Shown: piece after piece, positions 3,851 to 60,875 of the stretch | How the letters are laid out: each line of letters begins with the position of its first letter | Numbering within the stretch: the first letter of the stretch is position 1 | Assembly: GCA_938045445.1 (NCBI GenBank) | Contig: CALIMM010000015.1 | Coordinates: 122,648-186,647 of the forward strand | Direction of reading: 5' to 3' | Length of the DNA: 64,000 nucleotides | DNA from: an uncultured Candidatus Saccharibacteria bacterium | Lineage (GTDB): Bacteria; Patescibacteriota; Saccharimonadia; Saccharimonadales; Saccharimonadaceae | Made by a program: the position numbers and the translations under genes | Notes under the pieces: model-generated | What the model was told of the DNA's origin: nothing | Seen by the model: only the letters and a program-made list of their open reading frames with translations | Database searches by the model: none

Positions 3851-4609
3851 ATGAAAACAATCTGCGTTGATGAATCTGGTACACTAGGCTTTAGCTCCCA
3901 CGAGCCATACTTTGTCATGGCAGCGCTGATGATTGACGACGAGAAGGCGCTCAAACGGATGAAGAATTTGATCCGGCGGGTAAATGCGTCTGCAATGCGT
4001 CGGCGTCAACAACCATCGCATAAGCCGTGGTATGATAACCGTGTCCCATTCCATGAAAAGCAACGCGCTCAGCGGCAGATCGTTACTGGTCTATCGGCAC
4101 GGGCAGACCATCGAATCGCATACACCGTTATTGATAAGACGGTGCGGACACCGGTCTTTCAACGTAATCGACGCGTGCGTCACAAGCTGCGGCAGAGAAT
4201 TTTGCTACGACTCATTGCACAGTGGGTTTTGCAATACAATGATGATGTGCGTATTGTGGTAAGTAACAAGACAATGAAGGCAGCGGCTGCTCGCAAGATG
4301 GAAAAATACGTCCAAAAGCTGCTTAGTGATGAACAACGATTTCCGATGGCTCGCTATCGCCATCGGATAGAAATTGTACCAGTTGATCCACAGACTCACT
4401 ACGGCCTGCGGACGATTGATTACATTGCGCGGTTGATCCACCAAACGTACACAAGGCCCATCCAGCATCGCTTCCCACCGCAAAAGGAGGCGCTGCATAA
4501 GCTGAGCATTGCCAAGCTTCGCATTGTCAATGGCGAATTCATTACTGCGCACAACGTTGGAGTGCGGCCGCTAAGCGATACATTTCACACTGGCTTATTC
4601 TTGTGGTAA
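3851..4609 (+). CDS. DUF3800-like protein
   Basis: The ORF track starts at GTG 3800. I prefer ATG 3851 because MKTICVDESGTLGF matches the DUF3800 N-terminal 'x-D-E-S-G' signature. The gene is visibly AT-richer than its neighbours. Confidence 0.6.
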   Translation: MKTICVDESGTLGFSSHEPYFVMAALMIDDEKALKRMKNLIRRVNASAMRRRQQPSHKPWYDNRVPFHEKQRAQRQIVTGLSARADHRIAYTVIDKTVRTPVFQRNRRVRHKLRQRILLRLIAQWVLQYNDDVRIVVSNKTMKAAAARKMEKYVQKLLSDEQRFPMARYRHRIEIVPVDPQTHYGLRTIDYIARLIHQTYTRPIQHRFPPQKEALHKLSIAKLRIVNGEFITAHNVGVRPLSDTFHTGLFLW

Positions 4610-11663: not shown

Positions 11664-11770
11664 CTAATATCCAGAGTGCGACGAGGGACTGGCCCGATGA
11701 CTCGCCAGCAACCTGCTCGGGAAGCGAGTAAGGTGCTAATTCCAGCCTGTGCGCAGGGAAGATATGAGAC
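11664..11770 (+). promoter_or_regulatory. SAM-I (S-box) riboswitch
   Basis: AUAUCCAGAG..GACGAGGGACUGGCCCGAUGACUCGCCAGCAACC...AAGGUGCUAAUUCCAGC...GGGAAGAUAU matches the conserved S-box core. The P1 halves are ATATC/GATAT. A TATACT -10 lies at 11645-11650. The element sits directly upstream of metK. Confidence 0.9.
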
Positions 11771-17610: not shown

Positions 17611-17653
17611 GGGAGCGGTATTCTTTGTATCTAGCTAGCTCATGCCATCAGAC

Positions 17654-17712
17654 AAGAAAATATCTGGAGGCCAGCGACCAAGCAAGCGGGAGAGCTCTGT
17701 ATTTCGTCATAG
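17654..17712. repeat. Copy A of a ~60-nt intergenic repeat (AAGAA..TATCTGRAGGCCAGCGA...AAGCGGGAGMGCTCTGT...TCG.CAT)
   Basis: It aligns by eye at roughly three-quarters identity with 55708-55772. It aligns with an internal insertion to 32708-32788. Confidence 0.5.
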
Positions 17713-17824
17713 GGTGTTGATCTCAAAACTCTCATGTATTCTCACACTCCACCTCCACACTCCCTCCTCCGGAACACTATAAGGGTTGATATTCACTGGA
17801 TATCGATCTCTTGACGCCAGGGCT

Positions 17825-17851
17825 GAAAACAGATTATTGTAATCTGTTTTC
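17825..17851. terminator. Perfect 12-bp hairpin GAAAACAGATTA-TTG-TAATCTGTTTTC
   Basis: The stem has A-tract/T-tract arms, so it could terminate in either direction. It lies between the KwaB-like gene and the GH1 gene. Confidence 0.5.
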
Positions 17852-17966
17852 ACACTCCATCGGATGAAGTGATGGGGAGGTGGAGCGAGCGCAAAGAAAG
17901 AGAGACGATGCATCCACCCAATAATTCTATTTTTCTTAATCCTCAGCTGATGGTACAATAAGCATT

Positions 17967-23020: not shown

Positions 23021-23086
23021 GTGGGTAAAAGGGGTTGCGTGTGGGTGAGAGTGGGTAGTATAGTGGGAGTAGTGGAAGAAAGTGGG
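23021..23086 (+). promoter_or_regulatory. MraZ-operator-like array of direct GTGGG repeats upstream of mraZ
   Basis: GTGGG occurs at 23021, 23041, 23051, 23063 and 23082, with GTGGA at 23072. The last five are spaced 9-12 nt apart. TAGTAT (23056-23061) is embedded as a possible -10. Confidence 0.6.
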
Positions 23087-23155
23087 TAACCACGAGAAAA
23101 ACAAACACCACTGCACAAAAACAAAATAATTCATCTGTAAGGATCACCACACCCC

Positions 23156-23518
23156 ATGGATTACTTCGAACGCAAGCTGGATGACAAGCGTCGGCTCACC
23201 ATACCGACGGAGCTTCGGGCAGAGTTCGCCAGTGGCGTGGTCCTGACGCGCGGCTTTGGCAGCTACCTCCACCTGTATGCGCAGGATGTGTGGGATAGCC
23301 AGGTAGAGCCAGCGTTGACGGGCAGCATCCTGGATGAACATGTCGCCGACCTCAACGTCAAGTTCCGGCGCGGCAAGACGGCTGCCACTCTGGACCAGAA
23401 GCAGGGCAGGGTAACGGTAGAGCAGCATCTGCTGGATTATGCTGGGATATCGCGCGAGGTTGTGGCGGTGCGCGCCGGCCAGTATTGGCGCCTCATGGCA
23501 CCGGAGCAGGCTGAGTAG
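23156..23518 (+). CDS. mraZ: Transcriptional regulator MraZ
   Basis: There are two SpoVT/AbrB-like halves, each with the DxxxR signature (LDDKRRLTIP and LDQKQGRVTV). It is the first gene of the dcw cluster. Confidence 0.9.
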   Translation: MDYFERKLDDKRRLTIPTELRAEFASGVVLTRGFGSYLHLYAQDVWDSQVEPALTGSILDEHVADLNVKFRRGKTAATLDQKQGRVTVEQHLLDYAGISREVVAVRAGQYWRLMAPEQAE

Positions 23519-23659
23519 CAAGGCTGTTTTTGTGACGCTCTTTAACAAGTACGTGTAACTGATATCCTCGAGATCAACCATCTGGTAGTGAGCCATGTGG
23601 GCACCCGACCCACGCAAAACCTTGTCGGGCGCACCTTCCTCACAAACACCTCCCAAAAA

Positions 23660-24000
23660 CTCCACCTCACATAATTGCTGCGGCAATTATACACATAAGT
23701 CTCTCAAACGATCTTTGGCGGGCTCTCTCGGCCTGGTACAAGCAAAGATCGTCAACAAAAACAAACACATTTTATGCGAAAACAAACAGGTTTCGCTACC
23801 AGGTGGGTGATCTCGAACCCGCATCGGACTATCTCGCAGTAGCCTGAGCGGGGCGTATCTTTATGGAAAAGCATAGCTATACCTATCGGTAGCATTGCCG
23901 TGCCACCCTCCTGCCGAGGGAGTGTGATAATCCGTTGCAATAACGGATTATCAGCCCAGCGCAAGAGGTCAACATCTGGGAGATGTTGACCCTTATAGTG
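23660..24000. other. Hairpin-dense non-coding spacer (candidate structured RNA or decayed insertion; strand unresolved)
   Basis: Stems lie at 23671-23690, 23710-23750, 23776-23796, 23803-23822 and 23904-23924. Two perfect 11-bp hairpins lie at 23926-23952 and 23967-23991. There is no credible ORF. Confidence 0.4.
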
Positions 24001-24143
24001 ATCCCGAGTGCAGGAGGTGGTGAGGCAAGGCGTGAGACGGCGTATAGCTAGCCAGCTTAGTATTGGTTTCTCTGTTGTTCTTTGGCTAAATAGGCCATGA
24101 CCAGTAGGGGAGGAAAGCAATATTATGCTACCATAAGAAACGT

Positions 24144-25034
24144 ATGAGTATCAAAGCACATCCACCACTTCATGTTCCGGTATTGCTGGAGGCAGTGTTG
24201 GCCCAGCTCCAGCCACGCCCAGGTGAGCGCTATCTCGACCTGACGGCGGGGTATGGCGGCCATGCCACAGCGATTCTCGAGCAGACCCAGACGTATACCA
24301 CGGCGTGTTTGGTCGATCGCGACCAGTATGCTTTGTCGCAGCTTGGTAGCTTGGTAGGGCAGGGCGCACGGCTTATGCATTGCGATTTTTTGCATGCCGC
24401 ACAGCAGTTGGTTCGCGAGGGTGAGCAGTTTGATTTATTGCTGCTGGATTTGGGGGTGTCGTCACCGCAGCTCGATCGAGCTGACCGAGGGTTTTCCTTT
24501 ACACACACTGGCCCGCTTGATATGCGGATGGATCAACGCCAGGCGATGACTGCCGAGCAGATTGTCAACCACATGGCAGAGGCAGAGCTTGCCCGACTGA
24601 TCGCCCGCTACGGCGAAGAACCGCCGGCGATAGCACGGCGCTATGCTACTGCTATTTGCGCGGCCCGGCCACTGTCGAGTACTGGAGAACTCGCGCGCGT
24701 CATCGAGCACGCTACCCGTGGCAAGCGGGGCAAGACCCATCCGGCCACGCGTACCTTTCAGGCAGTCCGCATTGCCGTCAATGACGAATTGACGCAGGTA
24801 GAGCAGACGCTCCAGCTGGTGCCAGCCTTGCTGCGCACTGGTGGACGGGTGGGAGTGATTAGCTTCCATAGCCTCGAGGATCGGCTCGTCAAGCGCTTCT
24901 TCGCGGAGCAGCGCCAGGCAGGCTACGAGGCCGAGCTGCGCATCCTCACCAAGAAGCCTATCGCGGGCAGCCATGACGATGCTTACAATCCGCGTGCCCG
25001 CAGCGCCAAGCTGCGAGCCGCCGCAAAAATATAA
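24144..25034 (+). CDS. rsmH: 16S rRNA (cytosine1402-N4)-methyltransferase RsmH
   Basis: HVPVLLEAVL...YLDLTAGYGGHA...LLLDLGVSSPQLD...RGFSF...DMRMD...SFHSLEDRLVK are canonical MraW/RsmH motifs. Confidence 0.92.
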   Translation: MSIKAHPPLHVPVLLEAVLAQLQPRPGERYLDLTAGYGGHATAILEQTQTYTTACLVDRDQYALSQLGSLVGQGARLMHCDFLHAAQQLVREGEQFDLLLLDLGVSSPQLDRADRGFSFTHTGPLDMRMDQRQAMTAEQIVNHMAEAELARLIARYGEEPPAIARRYATAICAARPLSSTGELARVIEHATRGKRGKTHPATRTFQAVRIAVNDELTQVEQTLQLVPALLRTGGRVGVISFHSLEDRLVKRFFAEQRQAGYEAELRILTKKPIAGSHDDAYNPRARSAKLRAAAKI

Positions 25035-25227
25035 AAAAACAAAAAAAGGAGTAGGGACATGCCAGTTCGTATCCCCGTACAAAATCAATCAATCACGACA
25101 ACCGTATTGGTCCGCCACGGCAAATAGCCCTTGGCCTAAGACCTCGCGCTGGGGCGGCGCGCTATCCGCCCCACTTAGACCTAGAAACGACCCCATACCA
25201 ACGCTAAACAACACAAACACCACCACA

Positions 25228-25581
25228 ATGACAACCTACACACGGACAATGCAATTTAATAGTCGACGCCAGAGCACCTGGAAGCGCAACCGCAACACCG
25301 TTGCTTTTGCTTCGGCTATCAAACTTGGGCCAATCACCCACACAGTGCTGATTGCCCTCCTTATCACCATCCTTGGCTTGATATATCTGGCGCAGGCAAC
25401 GCATACAGTCAGCTATGGCTACGAGGCCAGCAAGATCGACGACAAGATCTCTGCTCTCAGCGAGCAAAAGAAAGACCTGGAGGTCGATAATGCCCGCCTG
25501 ACTGCCCTTAAGGAAGTGCAGGGTAGTAGTGTGGCCAAAACAATGACAACACCAGCCAATACAGCGTACGCCAGCGAGTAG
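25228..25581 (+). CDS. ftsL: FtsL-like division protein
   Basis: It sits between rsmH and ftsI. It has a single TM helix (ITHTVLIALLITILGLIYLAQA) followed by a coiled-coil-like segment (KIDDKISALSEQKKDLEVDNARLTALKE). ATG 25228 is the first in-frame Met after rsmH, ATG 25249 is an alternative, and there is no obvious SD. Confidence 0.6.
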   Translation: MTTYTRTMQFNSRRQSTWKRNRNTVAFASAIKLGPITHTVLIALLITILGLIYLAQATHTVSYGYEASKIDDKISALSEQKKDLEVDNARLTALKEVQGSSVAKTMTTPANTAYASE

Positions 25582-25584
25582 CCC

Positions 25585-27339
25585 ATGCTGCAGCGCCATC
25601 TTGCTACGCCACGCGCTCAGGCGCTCGCCACTGTGCTCGGCGGGCTACTTGTGGTGTTTGTGTTGCGCCTGGGGTATGTGCAGTTGCTGCAGCACGACTA
25701 CTATGTGTCGCAGGCTGATAGCGAGCAGGTCAAGCAATTTCGTCTGCGTGCCCAGCGCGGTGAGATATACACCATGGATGGTACTACTCCCGCCAAACTT
25801 GTCATGAATGAGACGGTCTATACCGTGTGGGCCGACCCAATGGCTGTGACGGATGCAGATAAGATCGTAGCGGTCCTCAACCAGGTGGCTGGTGGCAATG
25901 TGCGTGAGAACTTTCGCCAGTACATTACGCGCAAGCCAAGCCGCTACCAAGTGCTTGCCACCAAGGTGAACCGCAAGCAGGCTGAACTTATTAAGAAAGA
26001 GAATCTTGCTGGGGTGGGCTTTGATGCGATGAGCCAGCGCGTCTACCCAGAAGGGCAGCTGGCCAGCCAAGTGCTGGGCTTTGTTGATGCCGAGGGCAAG
26101 GGGAAGTACGGCTTCGAGCAAGCCAACGATGATAAGCTGCGCGGCACGGATGGCGTGCTCAAGACGGTGACGGACATCCGCTCAGTACCGCTGACGATTG
26201 GCCGGACGAACATCAACCAGCCCGCCAAGAATGGAACTAACATGGTGCTGACAATCGATCGCAACATCCAGACGAGGGTCGAGCAAGCGCTTGTCGATGG
26301 AGCCAAGCGCAGTGGCGCTACCGATGTCAGTGCCGTTGTGATGAACCCACAGAATGGCCAAGTCTTAGCCATGGCCAACCTCCCTACCTATGATCCGTCC
26401 AACCTCAAGACGATCAAAAGCGTCGCTGCACTCAACAACAACACCATCACCACACCATACGAGCCAGGCTCTGATATCAAGACATTCACAGTAGCAACGG
26501 GCATCGACAAAGGGGTTATCACGCCGCAAACGACGTACAATAATACCGATAGCATCAAGGTAGACGACATCACTATCGGCAATGCCAGCAAGGGCCAGAC
26601 GGGCAACATTACCATGCAGCACGCCCTTAATTGGTCGCTCAACACCGGTATGGTTACGGTGGCGCAGCGCTTGGGCAATGGCAGCTACATCACGCGCCAA
26701 GCGCGCGATACGATGTATGATTACTTCCACAAGCGCTTTCGCCTTGGGCAGTTGACGGGGATAGAGCTGGCTGGTGAGGCCAAGGGCAATATCATCTCGC
26801 CCACCCAGCAGCAGGGCAATGCCGTGCGCTACTCCAATATGTCCTTTGGCCAGGGGATGGATGCGACGATGCTGCAGGTCTCGGCTGGCTTTAGTGCGAT
26901 TATTAATGGTGGGACGTACTATAGCCCCACCGTCATTGCGGGGACGATTGACGACAATGGTACCTTTGCCAAGGCTGCGCGCAAAGCTTCGTATGCTCAT
27001 GTTATCAAGCCGCAATCATCTACCACTGTGCGCGAAATGGTACACCAAGCGCGCCAGGCCTTTTATGCGGGTGGCGATCGTGCGGGGTTCTACATTGGTG
27101 GCAAGACGGGCACATCGCAAACCATCAAAGACGGCAAGTATATTTCCAACCAAACCATTGGCACGTACCTCGGTTTTGGTGGGGAGGTTGGCAAAACACC
27201 AGCGTATGTTATTATGGTGGAGGTTTCGGGCAAAGGGCTGAATATGCAGGGGGGTCGAGACGCTCACCCGATTTTCACGGATATATCTAATTGGTTGCTC
27301 GACTACATGAAGCTCGAGCCGAAAGGAAACACACCATAA
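25585..27339 (+). CDS. ftsI: Penicillin-binding protein (FtsI/PBP2-type transpeptidase)
   Basis: N-terminal TM anchor. SxxK is present as GSDIKTF, SxN as WSLNTG and KTG as GGKTGTSQ. Confidence 0.9.
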   Translation: MLQRHLATPRAQALATVLGGLLVVFVLRLGYVQLLQHDYYVSQADSEQVKQFRLRAQRGEIYTMDGTTPAKLVMNETVYTVWADPMAVTDADKIVAVLNQVAGGNVRENFRQYITRKPSRYQVLATKVNRKQAELIKKENLAGVGFDAMSQRVYPEGQLASQVLGFVDAEGKGKYGFEQANDDKLRGTDGVLKTVTDIRSVPLTIGRTNINQPAKNGTNMVLTIDRNIQTRVEQALVDGAKRSGATDVSAVVMNPQNGQVLAMANLPTYDPSNLKTIKSVAALNNNTITTPYEPGSDIKTFTVATGIDKGVITPQTTYNNTDSIKVDDITIGNASKGQTGNITMQHALNWSLNTGMVTVAQRLGNGSYITRQARDTMYDYFHKRFRLGQLTGIELAGEAKGNIISPTQQQGNAVRYSNMSFGQGMDATMLQVSAGFSAIINGGTYYSPTVIAGTIDDNGTFAKAARKASYAHVIKPQSSTTVREMVHQARQAFYAGGDRAGFYIGGKTGTSQTIKDGKYISNQTIGTYLGFGGEVGKTPAYVIMVEVSGKGLNMQGGRDAHPIFTDISNWLLDYMKLEPKGNTP

Positions 27340-60800: not shown

Positions 60801-60875
60801 GGCCTCATCGTCTAACGGTTAGGACACCAGGTTTTCATCCTGGCAATCCGGGTTCGATTCCCGGTGAGGTCACCA
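60801..60875 (+). tRNA. tRNA-Glu (anticodon UUC), CCA encoded
   Basis: GGCCTCA-TC-GTCT-AACGGTT-AGGAC-A-CCAGG-TTTTCAT-CCTGG-CAAT-CCGGG-TTCGATT-CCCGG-TGAGGTC-A-CCA folds as a cloverleaf. The D-arm TCGTCTA..GG..AGGACAC is typical of tRNA-Glu. Confidence 0.93.

Follow-up and report, generated by a model that had tools for sequence, protein, structure and literature searches.

Introduction

The RNA element described here lies between mraZ and rsmH (mraW) at the start of the division and cell wall (dcw) cluster of a Candidatus Saccharibacteria (TM7) member. It is contained in a stretch of 64,000 nt, referred to below as the window (contig CALIMM010000015.1, positions 122,648 to 186,647 of the forward strand). 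Saccharibacteria are ultrasmall epibionts with streamlined genomes of ~1 Mb.

Several described RNA systems come close to this element. The mraW RNA motif (RF01746) of Actinobacteria, reportedly described by Weinberg et al. in 2010, is a conserved structure in the presumed 5′ untranslated region of mraW, which is the same gene as rsmH. We know of no boxA, pseudoknot, or invariant G-poor strands reported for it. The EAR element (epsC motif) of Bacillales, in the work of Irnov and Winkler of 2010, reportedly brings about processive antitermination, and Stringer et al. are said to have found boxA in CRISPR arrays in 2020. RsaE/RoxS-type small RNAs are independent genes of ~100 nt with their own promoter and terminator, and with C-rich seeds. 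Outside rRNA operons, boxA also occurs in the suhB leader, where Nus factors act on Rho-dependent termination (Baniulyte et al. 2017, PMC5725501). Protection from Rho and help with long-range folding are the roles expected of the Nus complex on rRNA leaders (PMC4807359, PMC10250234). According to a 2022 transcriptome paper on TM7x, that organism has no validated small RNAs. No description of the present element was found in the papers searched. As far as can be determined, it is so far undescribed, and its kind is that of a boxA-led, structured, untranslated operon element.

Conservation of the mraZ-rsmH spacer

The spacer between mraZ and rsmH is 625 nt long in the window (23519-24143). An earlier reading of the letters alone (the sequence-only reading) had remarked on this split of two usually adjacent genes, and the Pfam gene ends bear it out. 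In 10 of 11 non-Saccharibacteria loci with both genes, the spacer is only -11 to 77 nt long. In the mraZ-bearing Saccharibacteria species genomes it is 270-700 nt long (31 of 31), and these spacers have blocks of 90-100% identity in common. Among species-representative genomes, the best relatives of the window by RsmH are 42 Saccharibacteria metagenome-assembled genomes, four of them with an RsmH 97-99% identical.

The spacer folds better than its dinucleotide shuffles on both strands (+ strand, z = -7.56; - strand, z = -8.05; none of 20 shuffles folds as well), and its parts do so on their own (z = -7.27 for the core and -8.20 for the 3′ extension). The GC skew is -0.33 across 23600-23799. 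Because the checks of length, open reading frames (ORFs), repeats, folding, and other phyla agree, the observation is real and chance does not account for it. The spacer comprises two parts, a conserved element on the + strand (23537-23816) and a clade-specific extension (23819-24143), and there is hardly any doubt that it holds a genuine conserved structured RNA. The sequence-only reading had proposed a new structured RNA for the whole spacer. This RNA is real, belongs to the rsmH strand, covaries, and has no Rfam match, while its conserved part is limited to 23537-23816. Features added to that reading are boxA (23537-23548), a long-range helix, a pseudoknot, and invariant G-poor strands.

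Rfam 15 at the gathering threshold gives only two matches in the whole window, a tRNA-Glu and an S-adenosylmethionine (SAM) riboswitch at 11664-11768 (SAM-I, RF00162, + strand, 76 bits, E = 4.6e-16). At E <= 10, the region 23300-24350 has a match to AgrB only (23.6 bits against a gathering threshold of 40, E = 0.23), which is due to the hairpin 23925-23953 alone. Seven related loci have no matches at E <= 1. The families without a match to the element include mraW (RF01746), 6S, EAR/epsC, raiA, riboswitches, ribozymes, RNase P, SRP, tmRNA, and tRNA. The relatives share a homologous spacer with strong covariation and Rfam offers no known family for it, so the refuting findings named in the sequence-only reading do not overturn a new RNA.

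Closing helix P1

The two strands of P1 (Table 1) form a long-range helix of ~25 bp (22-26 bp), which is also predicted by the minimum free energy (MFE) fold of the single sequence. P1 has the form of an rRNA-type leader-trailer helix, being longer than the ~20 bp expected of one, lying downstream of boxA, and having strands that flank an enclosed RNA. In 83 sequences less than 80% identical, 96.7% of the cells are paired over 22 pairs, and compensatory changes occur at 19 of the 22. None of 500 shuffles reaches the observed value, and slid controls are 26-49% paired. P1 is ~25 bp long in all lineages, and both of its strands are partly conserved in sequence. It contains frequent G-U pairs (7/413 GU:41, 22/399 GU:45, 28/394 UG:35, and 13/408 UG:30). 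These would be A-C mismatches on the opposite strand, and the RNA is therefore read on the + (gene) strand.

It is highly improbable that the conservation belongs to the DNA, as a second MraZ operator, an internal promoter, or a scar left where a mobile element had entered a tRNA-like att site. An invariant block does read GTGAGGTGGAGTTTTGGGAGGTG on the minus strand, loosely like the GTGGG boxes at 23021-23086, and the 3′ repeat module acts like an inserted or invertible DNA segment. However, the long-range compensatory changes with G-U pairs are a mark of selection at the RNA level, and the element is kept in genomes without mraZ. Its G-rich boxes lack the 10-nt period of a true operator, no tRNA or tRNA fragment is detected, and, unlike a mobile element, the core has a single copy in each locus and none outside this place.

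The tRNA T-arm that had been proposed for the minus strand (GCGGGTTCGAGATC) is the complement of the conserved P1 3′ strand (GAUCUCGAACC), the partner of CUCGAGAUC at 23567-23575, and this likeness is a coincidence. The GGTTCGAGATC string of the supposed tRNA-like att site is likewise the complement of the P1 3′ strand. ARAGORN and Rfam detect no tRNA in the spacer, and ARAGORN finds only a tRNA-Glu at 60801-60875 in the window. The suggested insertion scar at such a site fails for the core, and an insertion origin is plausible only for the 3′ repeat module. A Shine-Dalgarno-like AGGUGAUC in the P1 3′ strand was rejected as a functional site, since it is not universal (UUGAACGAUC in the mraZ-less lineage) and has no start codon after it.

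Pseudoknot

An H-type pseudoknot follows the P1 5′ strand, with the order A5′-B5′-A3′-B3′ and with covariation for each stem. When searched for under positional constraints, it is present in 82 of 83 sequences, and 80 of the 83 do better than at least 95% of shuffles. The MAFFT register is inconsistent for stem B, and therefore a covariance-model alignment of 91 sequences was used. Stem A is 93% paired in this alignment, though it lies outside the covariance model. Four pairs of stem B covary strongly (e.g., GC:44, AU:19, CG:10, UA:9). Stem B is 85% paired against at most 59% in slid controls, and 0 of 500 shuffles reach the observed value, with some bias toward this stem from the model having fitted the alignment to it.

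H-type pseudoknots with an A-rich loop 3 beside invariant unpaired nucleotides are typical of small aptamers. The element has this anatomy and is linked to rsmH, not to mraZ, which would suit a sensor leader, either a riboswitch (e.g., for a cell-wall precursor or SAM) or a protein operator (e.g., for RsmH) that switches the expression of rsmH and the dcw cluster. Such a role is unlikely. The spacer shows no alternative terminator/anti-terminator and no structure that would sequester a Shine-Dalgarno, it matches none of the known riboswitch models, and P1 is far too stable for a switching helix (core MFE of -86 kcal/mol). In one variant of this idea, RsmH would recognise a mimic of its own 16S C1402 site, ACACCGCCC...UCACAC. 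By eye, ACACCUCCC ... UCACAC ... AAGUC is colinear with 16S 1396-1404, 1406-1411, and 1492-1496. In local alignment with E. coli 16S, however, the junction misses the C1402 region, and its best score is reached by 13-20% of shuffles.

Mimicry of rRNA, or pairing with it, was rejected more generally (C1402, anti-Shine-Dalgarno, and 16S 5′ region). For three variants of the junction J, the best scores are matched by at least 13% of shuffles, and the best E. coli 16S match of J is at 47-63 and not at 1396-1411. In this comparison, E. coli 16S, 23S, and 5S rRNA and their complements stand as a proxy for Saccharibacteria rRNA. The likenesses seen by eye, of ACACCUCCC to 16S ACACCGCCC, of CACCUCC to the 16S 3′ end, and of AAGUCUC, which is also in the E. 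coli rrn leader, are treated as unsupported, nothing being significant against shuffles.

Single strands and variable hairpins

The core has the invariant G-poor single strands ACACCUCCC, AUAAGUCUCUCAA, and CAAAAACAAA. The mean composition of J is 37% C and 5% G, and ACACCUCCC and AUAAGUCUCUCAAC are retained even in a diverged lineage without mraZ. The number of A residues between the blocks of J ranges from 4 to 10 among relatives. The blocks on both sides of the optional hairpin are contiguous in most relatives, and other lineages insert unrelated hairpins of other lengths at this site. The position of the hairpin domain P3 is conserved, while its sequence and length are free to vary. The A-rich strand is nearly invariant over alignment columns 346-386 and comprises on average 70% A and 2% G. 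The blocks of J are 90-100% identical in all relatives, while RsmH is only ~50% identical.

The A-runs of 4-10 nt and the arbitrary lengths of the inserted hairpins show that the conservation of the core does not come from a reading frame. That the spacer encodes an unannotated small protein is scarcely conceivable. It has ORFs of 71 aa (23595-23810, +) and 122 aa (23752-24120, -). However, the conserved blocks are separated by indels of 1, 2, 4, and more nt and by varied hairpin insertions, and conservation peaks where there is no conserved start codon. The earlier view of the spacer as ORF-free agrees with Pfam, which gives no match for these two ORFs or for 23144-23686 (-). The 122-aa ORF had been called not protein-like, and it does lie wholly in sequence that is not conserved even among sister strains.

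boxA

A boxA-like element stands between the mraZ stop codon and P1. Its bases 23537-23547 (GCTCTTTAACA) fit the consensus GYTCTTTAANA (Baniulyte et al. 2017, PMC5725501) perfectly, and no other site in the 64-kb window matches exactly. Over 12 of 12 bases, the element agrees with the boxA of the E. coli rrnB leader (L205 217-228), the references being the published consensus and E. coli rrnB. By sequence it has the attributes of a boxA, namely the consensus, the transcribed strand, and a position before untranslated RNA. The relatives have the form GYWCNTTAACAA, mostly 8-35 nt ahead of the core. Within 100 nt upstream of the core, a boxA-like motif with up to two mismatches is present in 104 of 142 distinct loci (background of 0.02 per 100 nt, ~36-fold), and with up to one mismatch in 63 of 142 (background of 0.0012, ~370-fold). 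It accompanies the core even in loci without mraZ.

No boxB is evident in the element. A boxC was considered, since AUGUGGGCACCCGA resembles E. coli UGUGUGGGCACUCGA, and it was rejected. The window sequence AUGUGGGCACCCGAC at 23594-23610, a part of the pseudoknot, agrees with the rrnB boxC (L205 243-259) at 13 of 15 positions. This likeness is confined to the clade of the window and is probably a coincidence, because other Saccharibacteria are without it.

Distribution

A profile search with the shared part finds exactly one copy per locus in 162 Saccharibacteria loci (~160 independent contigs), and no match in 38 loci of other phyla (Cyanobacteria, Firmicutes, Desulfovibrio, Verrucomicrobia, and other groups). 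The element is always just upstream of rsmH in the Saccharibacteria loci examined, with strict synteny and orientation in ~160 contigs, and its core was never found away from this slot. A scan of a metagenome collection with the invariant motif alone, chosen to avoid conditioning on rsmH, gives 120 sites. At 87 of them, mraZ precedes and rsmH follows the motif on its strand; most of the others are contig ends. The diverged Nanosyncoccus-like lineage without mraZ (L009, L011, L013, L015, L019, L021, L022, L024, L033, and L038) still has the element, with unchanged architecture, right in front of rsmH. This ties the element to rsmH and the dcw operon rather than to mraZ.

Outside Saccharibacteria, only one locus has a long mraZ-rsmH spacer, that of candidate division FCPU426 (L073 3578-4001, 422 nt), and the Saccharibacteria profile gives no match to it. 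Among the relatives, some loci (L117 4266-4577, L167 4474-4788, L137, and L192) have no MraZ by tblastn despite full upstream sequence, and an unrelated short ORF (...MTDAAVSQSMYGRAGVLVCVPDAYVSRATLSLGA) precedes boxA and the core in them. In eight loci of the mraZ-less lineage (L009, L011, L013, L019, L021, L022, L024, and L033), an extended -10 (TGTATAAT) is found 6-7 nt before the rsmH ATG. L009 has a strong predicted promoter at 3957-3995, TTGAAC-17-TATAAT, with its -35 TTGAAC inside the P1 3′ strand. This -35 is confirmed in L009 only, and the promoter scan gave none in L022. The position of the predicted promoter suggests a leaderless rsmH mRNA in this lineage.

Proposed function

The position and strand of the element are observed, as is its anatomy, and no + strand intrinsic terminator is found in the spacer, including the stretch from mraZ to the core and that after the core. 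Neither is a convincing + strand promoter found between mraZ and the core in the window. We lean, by a little, toward an untranslated leader or processing element of the dcw operon that is shielded from termination by boxA and Nus factors. The boxA/Nus antitermination step itself is fairly probable, and the chances of a purely cis role are even. Strict synteny and the absence of a terminator make a cis-acting leader the preferred reading.

The element would be transcribed on the + strand as part of the mraZ-to-rsmH (dcw) transcript. After the mraZ stop codon, where ribosomes would leave, RNA polymerase would have 300-600 nt of untranslated RNA to cross, including a C-rich, G-poor stretch whose composition resembles a Rho loading site. 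BoxA would bind NusB and NusE (S10) and give rise to a Nus antitermination complex, as in rRNA operons and CRISPR arrays. This complex would make RNA polymerase Rho-resistant on the untranslated RNA, so that it reaches rsmH-ftsL-ftsI and beyond. It may also aid the pairing of the distant P1 strands, as with the rRNA leader-trailer helix. With P1 formed, the pseudoknot and the invariant single strands would be looped out and offer a conserved partner, be it a protein, the ribosome, or Rho, a surface on which to dock. The partner would set the expression of rsmH and the downstream cell-division genes relative to mraZ, either by control of elongation or by RNase III cleavage of the two-turn helix P1.

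Several points weigh against this proposal. Past the anatomy, we infer each of its steps, from expression to binding and processing. Protection from Rho alone leaves the invariance of at least 40 unpaired nt across the class unexplained, and as it needs no invariant sequence, a sequence-specific partner must exist. Position 3 of boxA is frequently A instead of T in relatives, which makes the binding of NusB/NusE an assumption. The rsmH of the mraZ-less lineage, with its own predicted promoter, may not depend on read-through, and this weakens a purely cis role.

Alternatively, RNase III would cut P1 and free a stable trans-acting RNA of ~220 nt, boxA and a two-turn helix being the architecture of an rRNA operon. 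In this less probable alternative, the invariant G-free, C-rich loops (ACACCUCCC and CCACCUC, like the anti-Shine-Dalgarno CACCUCC) would bind G-rich ribosome-binding sites of mRNAs or a core machine, and would resemble the C-rich seeds of RsaE/RoxS-type small RNAs. The constant length of P1 in all lineages with its partly conserved strands fits such an RNA, and the invariance of the unpaired blocks suits a partner in trans. The element is also kept where mraZ is lost and rsmH apparently has its own leaderless promoter. Most lineages are A-rich before the rsmH start, which leaves no Shine-Dalgarno for the C-rich blocks to sequester, and sequestering of the rsmH Shine-Dalgarno by these blocks was itself rejected on this ground. 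On the other side, synteny and orientation upstream of rsmH are strict, and with no terminator after the core, any release would have to come from a hypothetical processing step. Not all lineages have the second CACCUC block, which is missing in the mraZ-less one, and neither complementarity nor similarity to the E. coli rRNAs (16S, 23S, and 5S) was found at a significant level.

An excised RNA of ~220 nt is favoured by the rRNA-like architecture and by the predicted leaderless rsmH promoter of the mraZ-less lineage. A rather doubtful form of it is a miniature cassette in the style of an rRNA operon, set within the cell-division operon. RNA polymerase modified through boxA would transcribe this cassette, P1 would form, and RNase III would free a stable ~220-nt RNA, universal in Saccharibacteria, whose invariant G-free strands would dock on the 30S subunit, Rho, or RNA polymerase. 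The cis-acting leader and the excised RNA do not exclude each other.

Clade-specific 3′ extension

The 3′ part of the spacer (23819-24143, 325 nt) has homologs only in four near-identical genomes and partly in L093 and L163. Its first 44 nt are 98-100% identical in L001-L004, L093, and L163 only. These 325 nt are a recent clade-specific addition outside the conserved device. They contain a repeat module of ~145 nt, with the conserved strings GGAGUGUGA, CAGCCC, CAAGAG, and CCCUUAUAG between its hairpins. A paralog of the module lies ~6 kb upstream on the minus strand at 17741-17884, within the intergenic region 17611-17966 (71% identity, nhmmer E = 5.6e-33), and is framed by its own inverted repeat CTCCACCTCC/GGAGGTGGAG.

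L093 (1531-1687) and L163 (3539-3698) have the module in the opposite orientation to rsmH and with other flanks. Their MraZ is 99-100% and their RsmH 98% identical to those of the window. This points to either independent insertion or inversion. Both hairpins of the module covary across four versions. The strand of the module, as judged from wobble pairs, differs between copies, which contradict each other. The module is absent from all other Saccharibacteria loci examined. In viral contigs, a search for the two-hairpin pattern gives four matches, all due to chance, with no hairpins and no profile match. Within the 64 kb of genome covered, the module has the attributes of a repeat element resembling miniature inverted-repeat transposable elements or repetitive extragenic palindromes (MITE/REP), with two copies and an orientation that varies between strains. 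It behaves like a small repeated element that is possibly mobile or invertible.

Seven inverted repeats had been listed in the sequence-only reading. All are present where they were placed, four of them as perfect repeats in a repeat search (23925-36/23942-53 of 12 nt, 23967-77/23981-91 of 11 nt, 23708-17/23743-52 of 10 nt, and 23671-78/23683-90 of 8 nt) and the three short ones (6-7 nt) by direct reading, the latter at a length expected by chance. The first repeat is the optional insertion in J and the second is P3. In the comparative model, the bases of the third and fourth (GCGAAA/TTTCGC and GTGGGT/ACCCGC) fall to P1 and the A-rich strand, and the fifth (CACCCTC/GAGGGAGTG) is in competition with the stem that closes the repeat module. 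The sixth and seventh, two perfect hairpins of 11-12 bp that had been counted as part of the RNA, belong instead to the clade-specific module.

Features and setting of the locus

The features of the spacer and the neighbouring genes are collected in Table 1.

Table 1. Coordinates of the conserved element, the 3′ extension, and the flanking genes in the window.
Feature	Sequence	Position	Strand	Remarks
MraZ		23156-23518		Pfam, E = 2.7e-13
boxA-like element	GCUCUUUAACAA	23537-23548	+	18 nt after mraZ stop codon, 20 nt before P1
P1, 5′ strand	UCGAGAUCAACCAUCUGGUAGUGAGC	23568-23593	+	RNAalifold and pair counts
H-type pseudoknot		23597-23629	+	Stems A and B; A-rich loop 3 at 23614-23623
Pseudoknot stem A	GUGGG with CCCAC	23597-23601 with 23609-23613		
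Pseudoknot stem B	CCCGA with UCGGG	23604-23608 with 23625-23629		
Junction J		23630-23709	+	Single-stranded, G-poor, C-rich; ~60 nt without the clade-specific hairpin
Invariant block of J	ACACCUCCC	23646-23654		
Invariant block of J	AAACUCCACCUCAC	23657-23670		
Optional hairpin	AUAAUUGC/GCAAUUAU	23671-23690	+	Perfect 8-bp repeat inside J; clade of the window only
Invariant block of J	ACACAUAAGUCUCUCAA	23691-23707		
Variable hairpin domain P3	ACGAUCUUUG ... CAAAGAUCGU	23708-23752	+	Perfect 10-bp repeat with inner hairpin; in MFE fold
A-rich strand	CAAAAACAAA(C/A)AC and GAAAACAAACA (the latter also given as AAAACAAACA)	23753-23789	+	Near-invariant blocks
P1, 3′ strand	GUUUCGCUACCAGGUGGGUGAUCUCGA	23790-23816	+	RNAalifold and pair counts; complement had been read as a T-arm
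Hairpin right after P1		23819-23851	+	MFE fold; opens the extension
Repeat module, ~145 nt		23893-24037		Closing stem enclosing hairpins 23925-23953 and 23967-23991
Weak promoter-like site	ATGACC-18-TATTAT	24097-24126		Downstream of the core, just ahead of rsmH
Conserved 20 nt	UAUGCUACCAUAAGAAACGU	24124-24143	+	Immediately before rsmH start; 100% identical in L093 and L163, flanks differ
RsmH/MraW		24144-25034		Pfam, E = 1.4e-87
FtsI-type penicillin-binding protein		25585-27339		Pfam

An array of GTGGG/GTGGA/GGGG boxes lies just upstream of mraZ on the + strand (23021-23086), with ~7 boxes of 10-11 nt period that start at 23021, 23031, 23041, 23051, 23063, 23072, and 23082. The array resembles the classic MraZ operator, and autoregulation of the operon by MraZ is therefore probable. 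Between rsmH and ftsI, a 202-aa ORF (24973-25581, +) has no Pfam match. Its translation has a transmembrane segment and, after this, a coiled-coil-like stretch, and is probably FtsL. In its longest form, the ORF overlaps rsmH at the 3′ end of the latter.

Significance

An RNA of at least 250 nt is kept between the first two genes of the essential dcw operon despite genome streamlining, and it accounts for a gap that recurs ahead of rsmH in the annotation of hundreds of metagenome-assembled genomes. More than 40 nt are invariant while the neighbouring proteins are ~50% identical, which implies an important function. The new family can be used for a covariance model and for the annotation of genomes of the Candidate Phyla Radiation (CPR). 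It is the clearest example known to us of a consensus boxA inside a protein-coding operon outside Proteobacteria, and would extend the idea that Nus-factor antitermination shields any long untranslated RNA. The element may also give a handle on the ratio of MraZ to RsmH and the division proteins in organisms whose division takes place on a host surface. If a stable RNA is indeed excised, it would represent a new class of housekeeping or regulatory CPR RNA, through which transcription of the dcw operon is coupled to the capacity for translation.

Comparison with known systems

The element has the same syntenic slot as the mraW motif, at the start of the dcw cluster. However, it is from another phylum, the mraW motif is a far smaller hairpin, and its model has no match here. 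EAR is similar in being a structured RNA between early genes of a long cell-envelope operon. In contrast, it has no sequence or structure similarity to the element, gives no Rfam match, lacks boxA, and is from another lineage. The invariant, unpaired C-rich motifs, which are able to pair with G-rich ribosome-binding sites, resemble those of RsaE/RoxS-type small RNAs, whereas the element is ~250 nt long, lies within an operon, and lacks a terminator.

The suhB leader and the CRISPR arrays likewise place a consensus boxA in a 5′ untranslated region or before a long RNA that is not translated. Those boxA elements, from Gammaproteobacteria and others, have no conserved pseudoknotted RNA domain after them, whereas boxA is here a module of a larger RNA. 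The rRNA operon leader, with its boxA and its RNase III leader-trailer helix, is read by the Nus antitermination complex (rrnTAC) and has an identical boxA in E. coli rrnB. As in that leader, a long-range helix of ~25 bp starts ~20 nt past boxA, finds its partner ~200 nt further on, and encloses an untranslated, structured interior. In contrast to it, the helix encloses ~200 nt and not a 1.5-kb rRNA, and stands inside a protein-coding cell-division operon after a translated gene. By analogy, the closest functional counterpart is the rRNA operon leader, and the closest precedents for boxA outside rRNA operons are the suhB leader and the CRISPR arrays. None of the systems compared unites, as this element does within a protein-coding operon of a CPR lineage, boxA with a pseudoknotted domain and with long G-free strands that are invariant.

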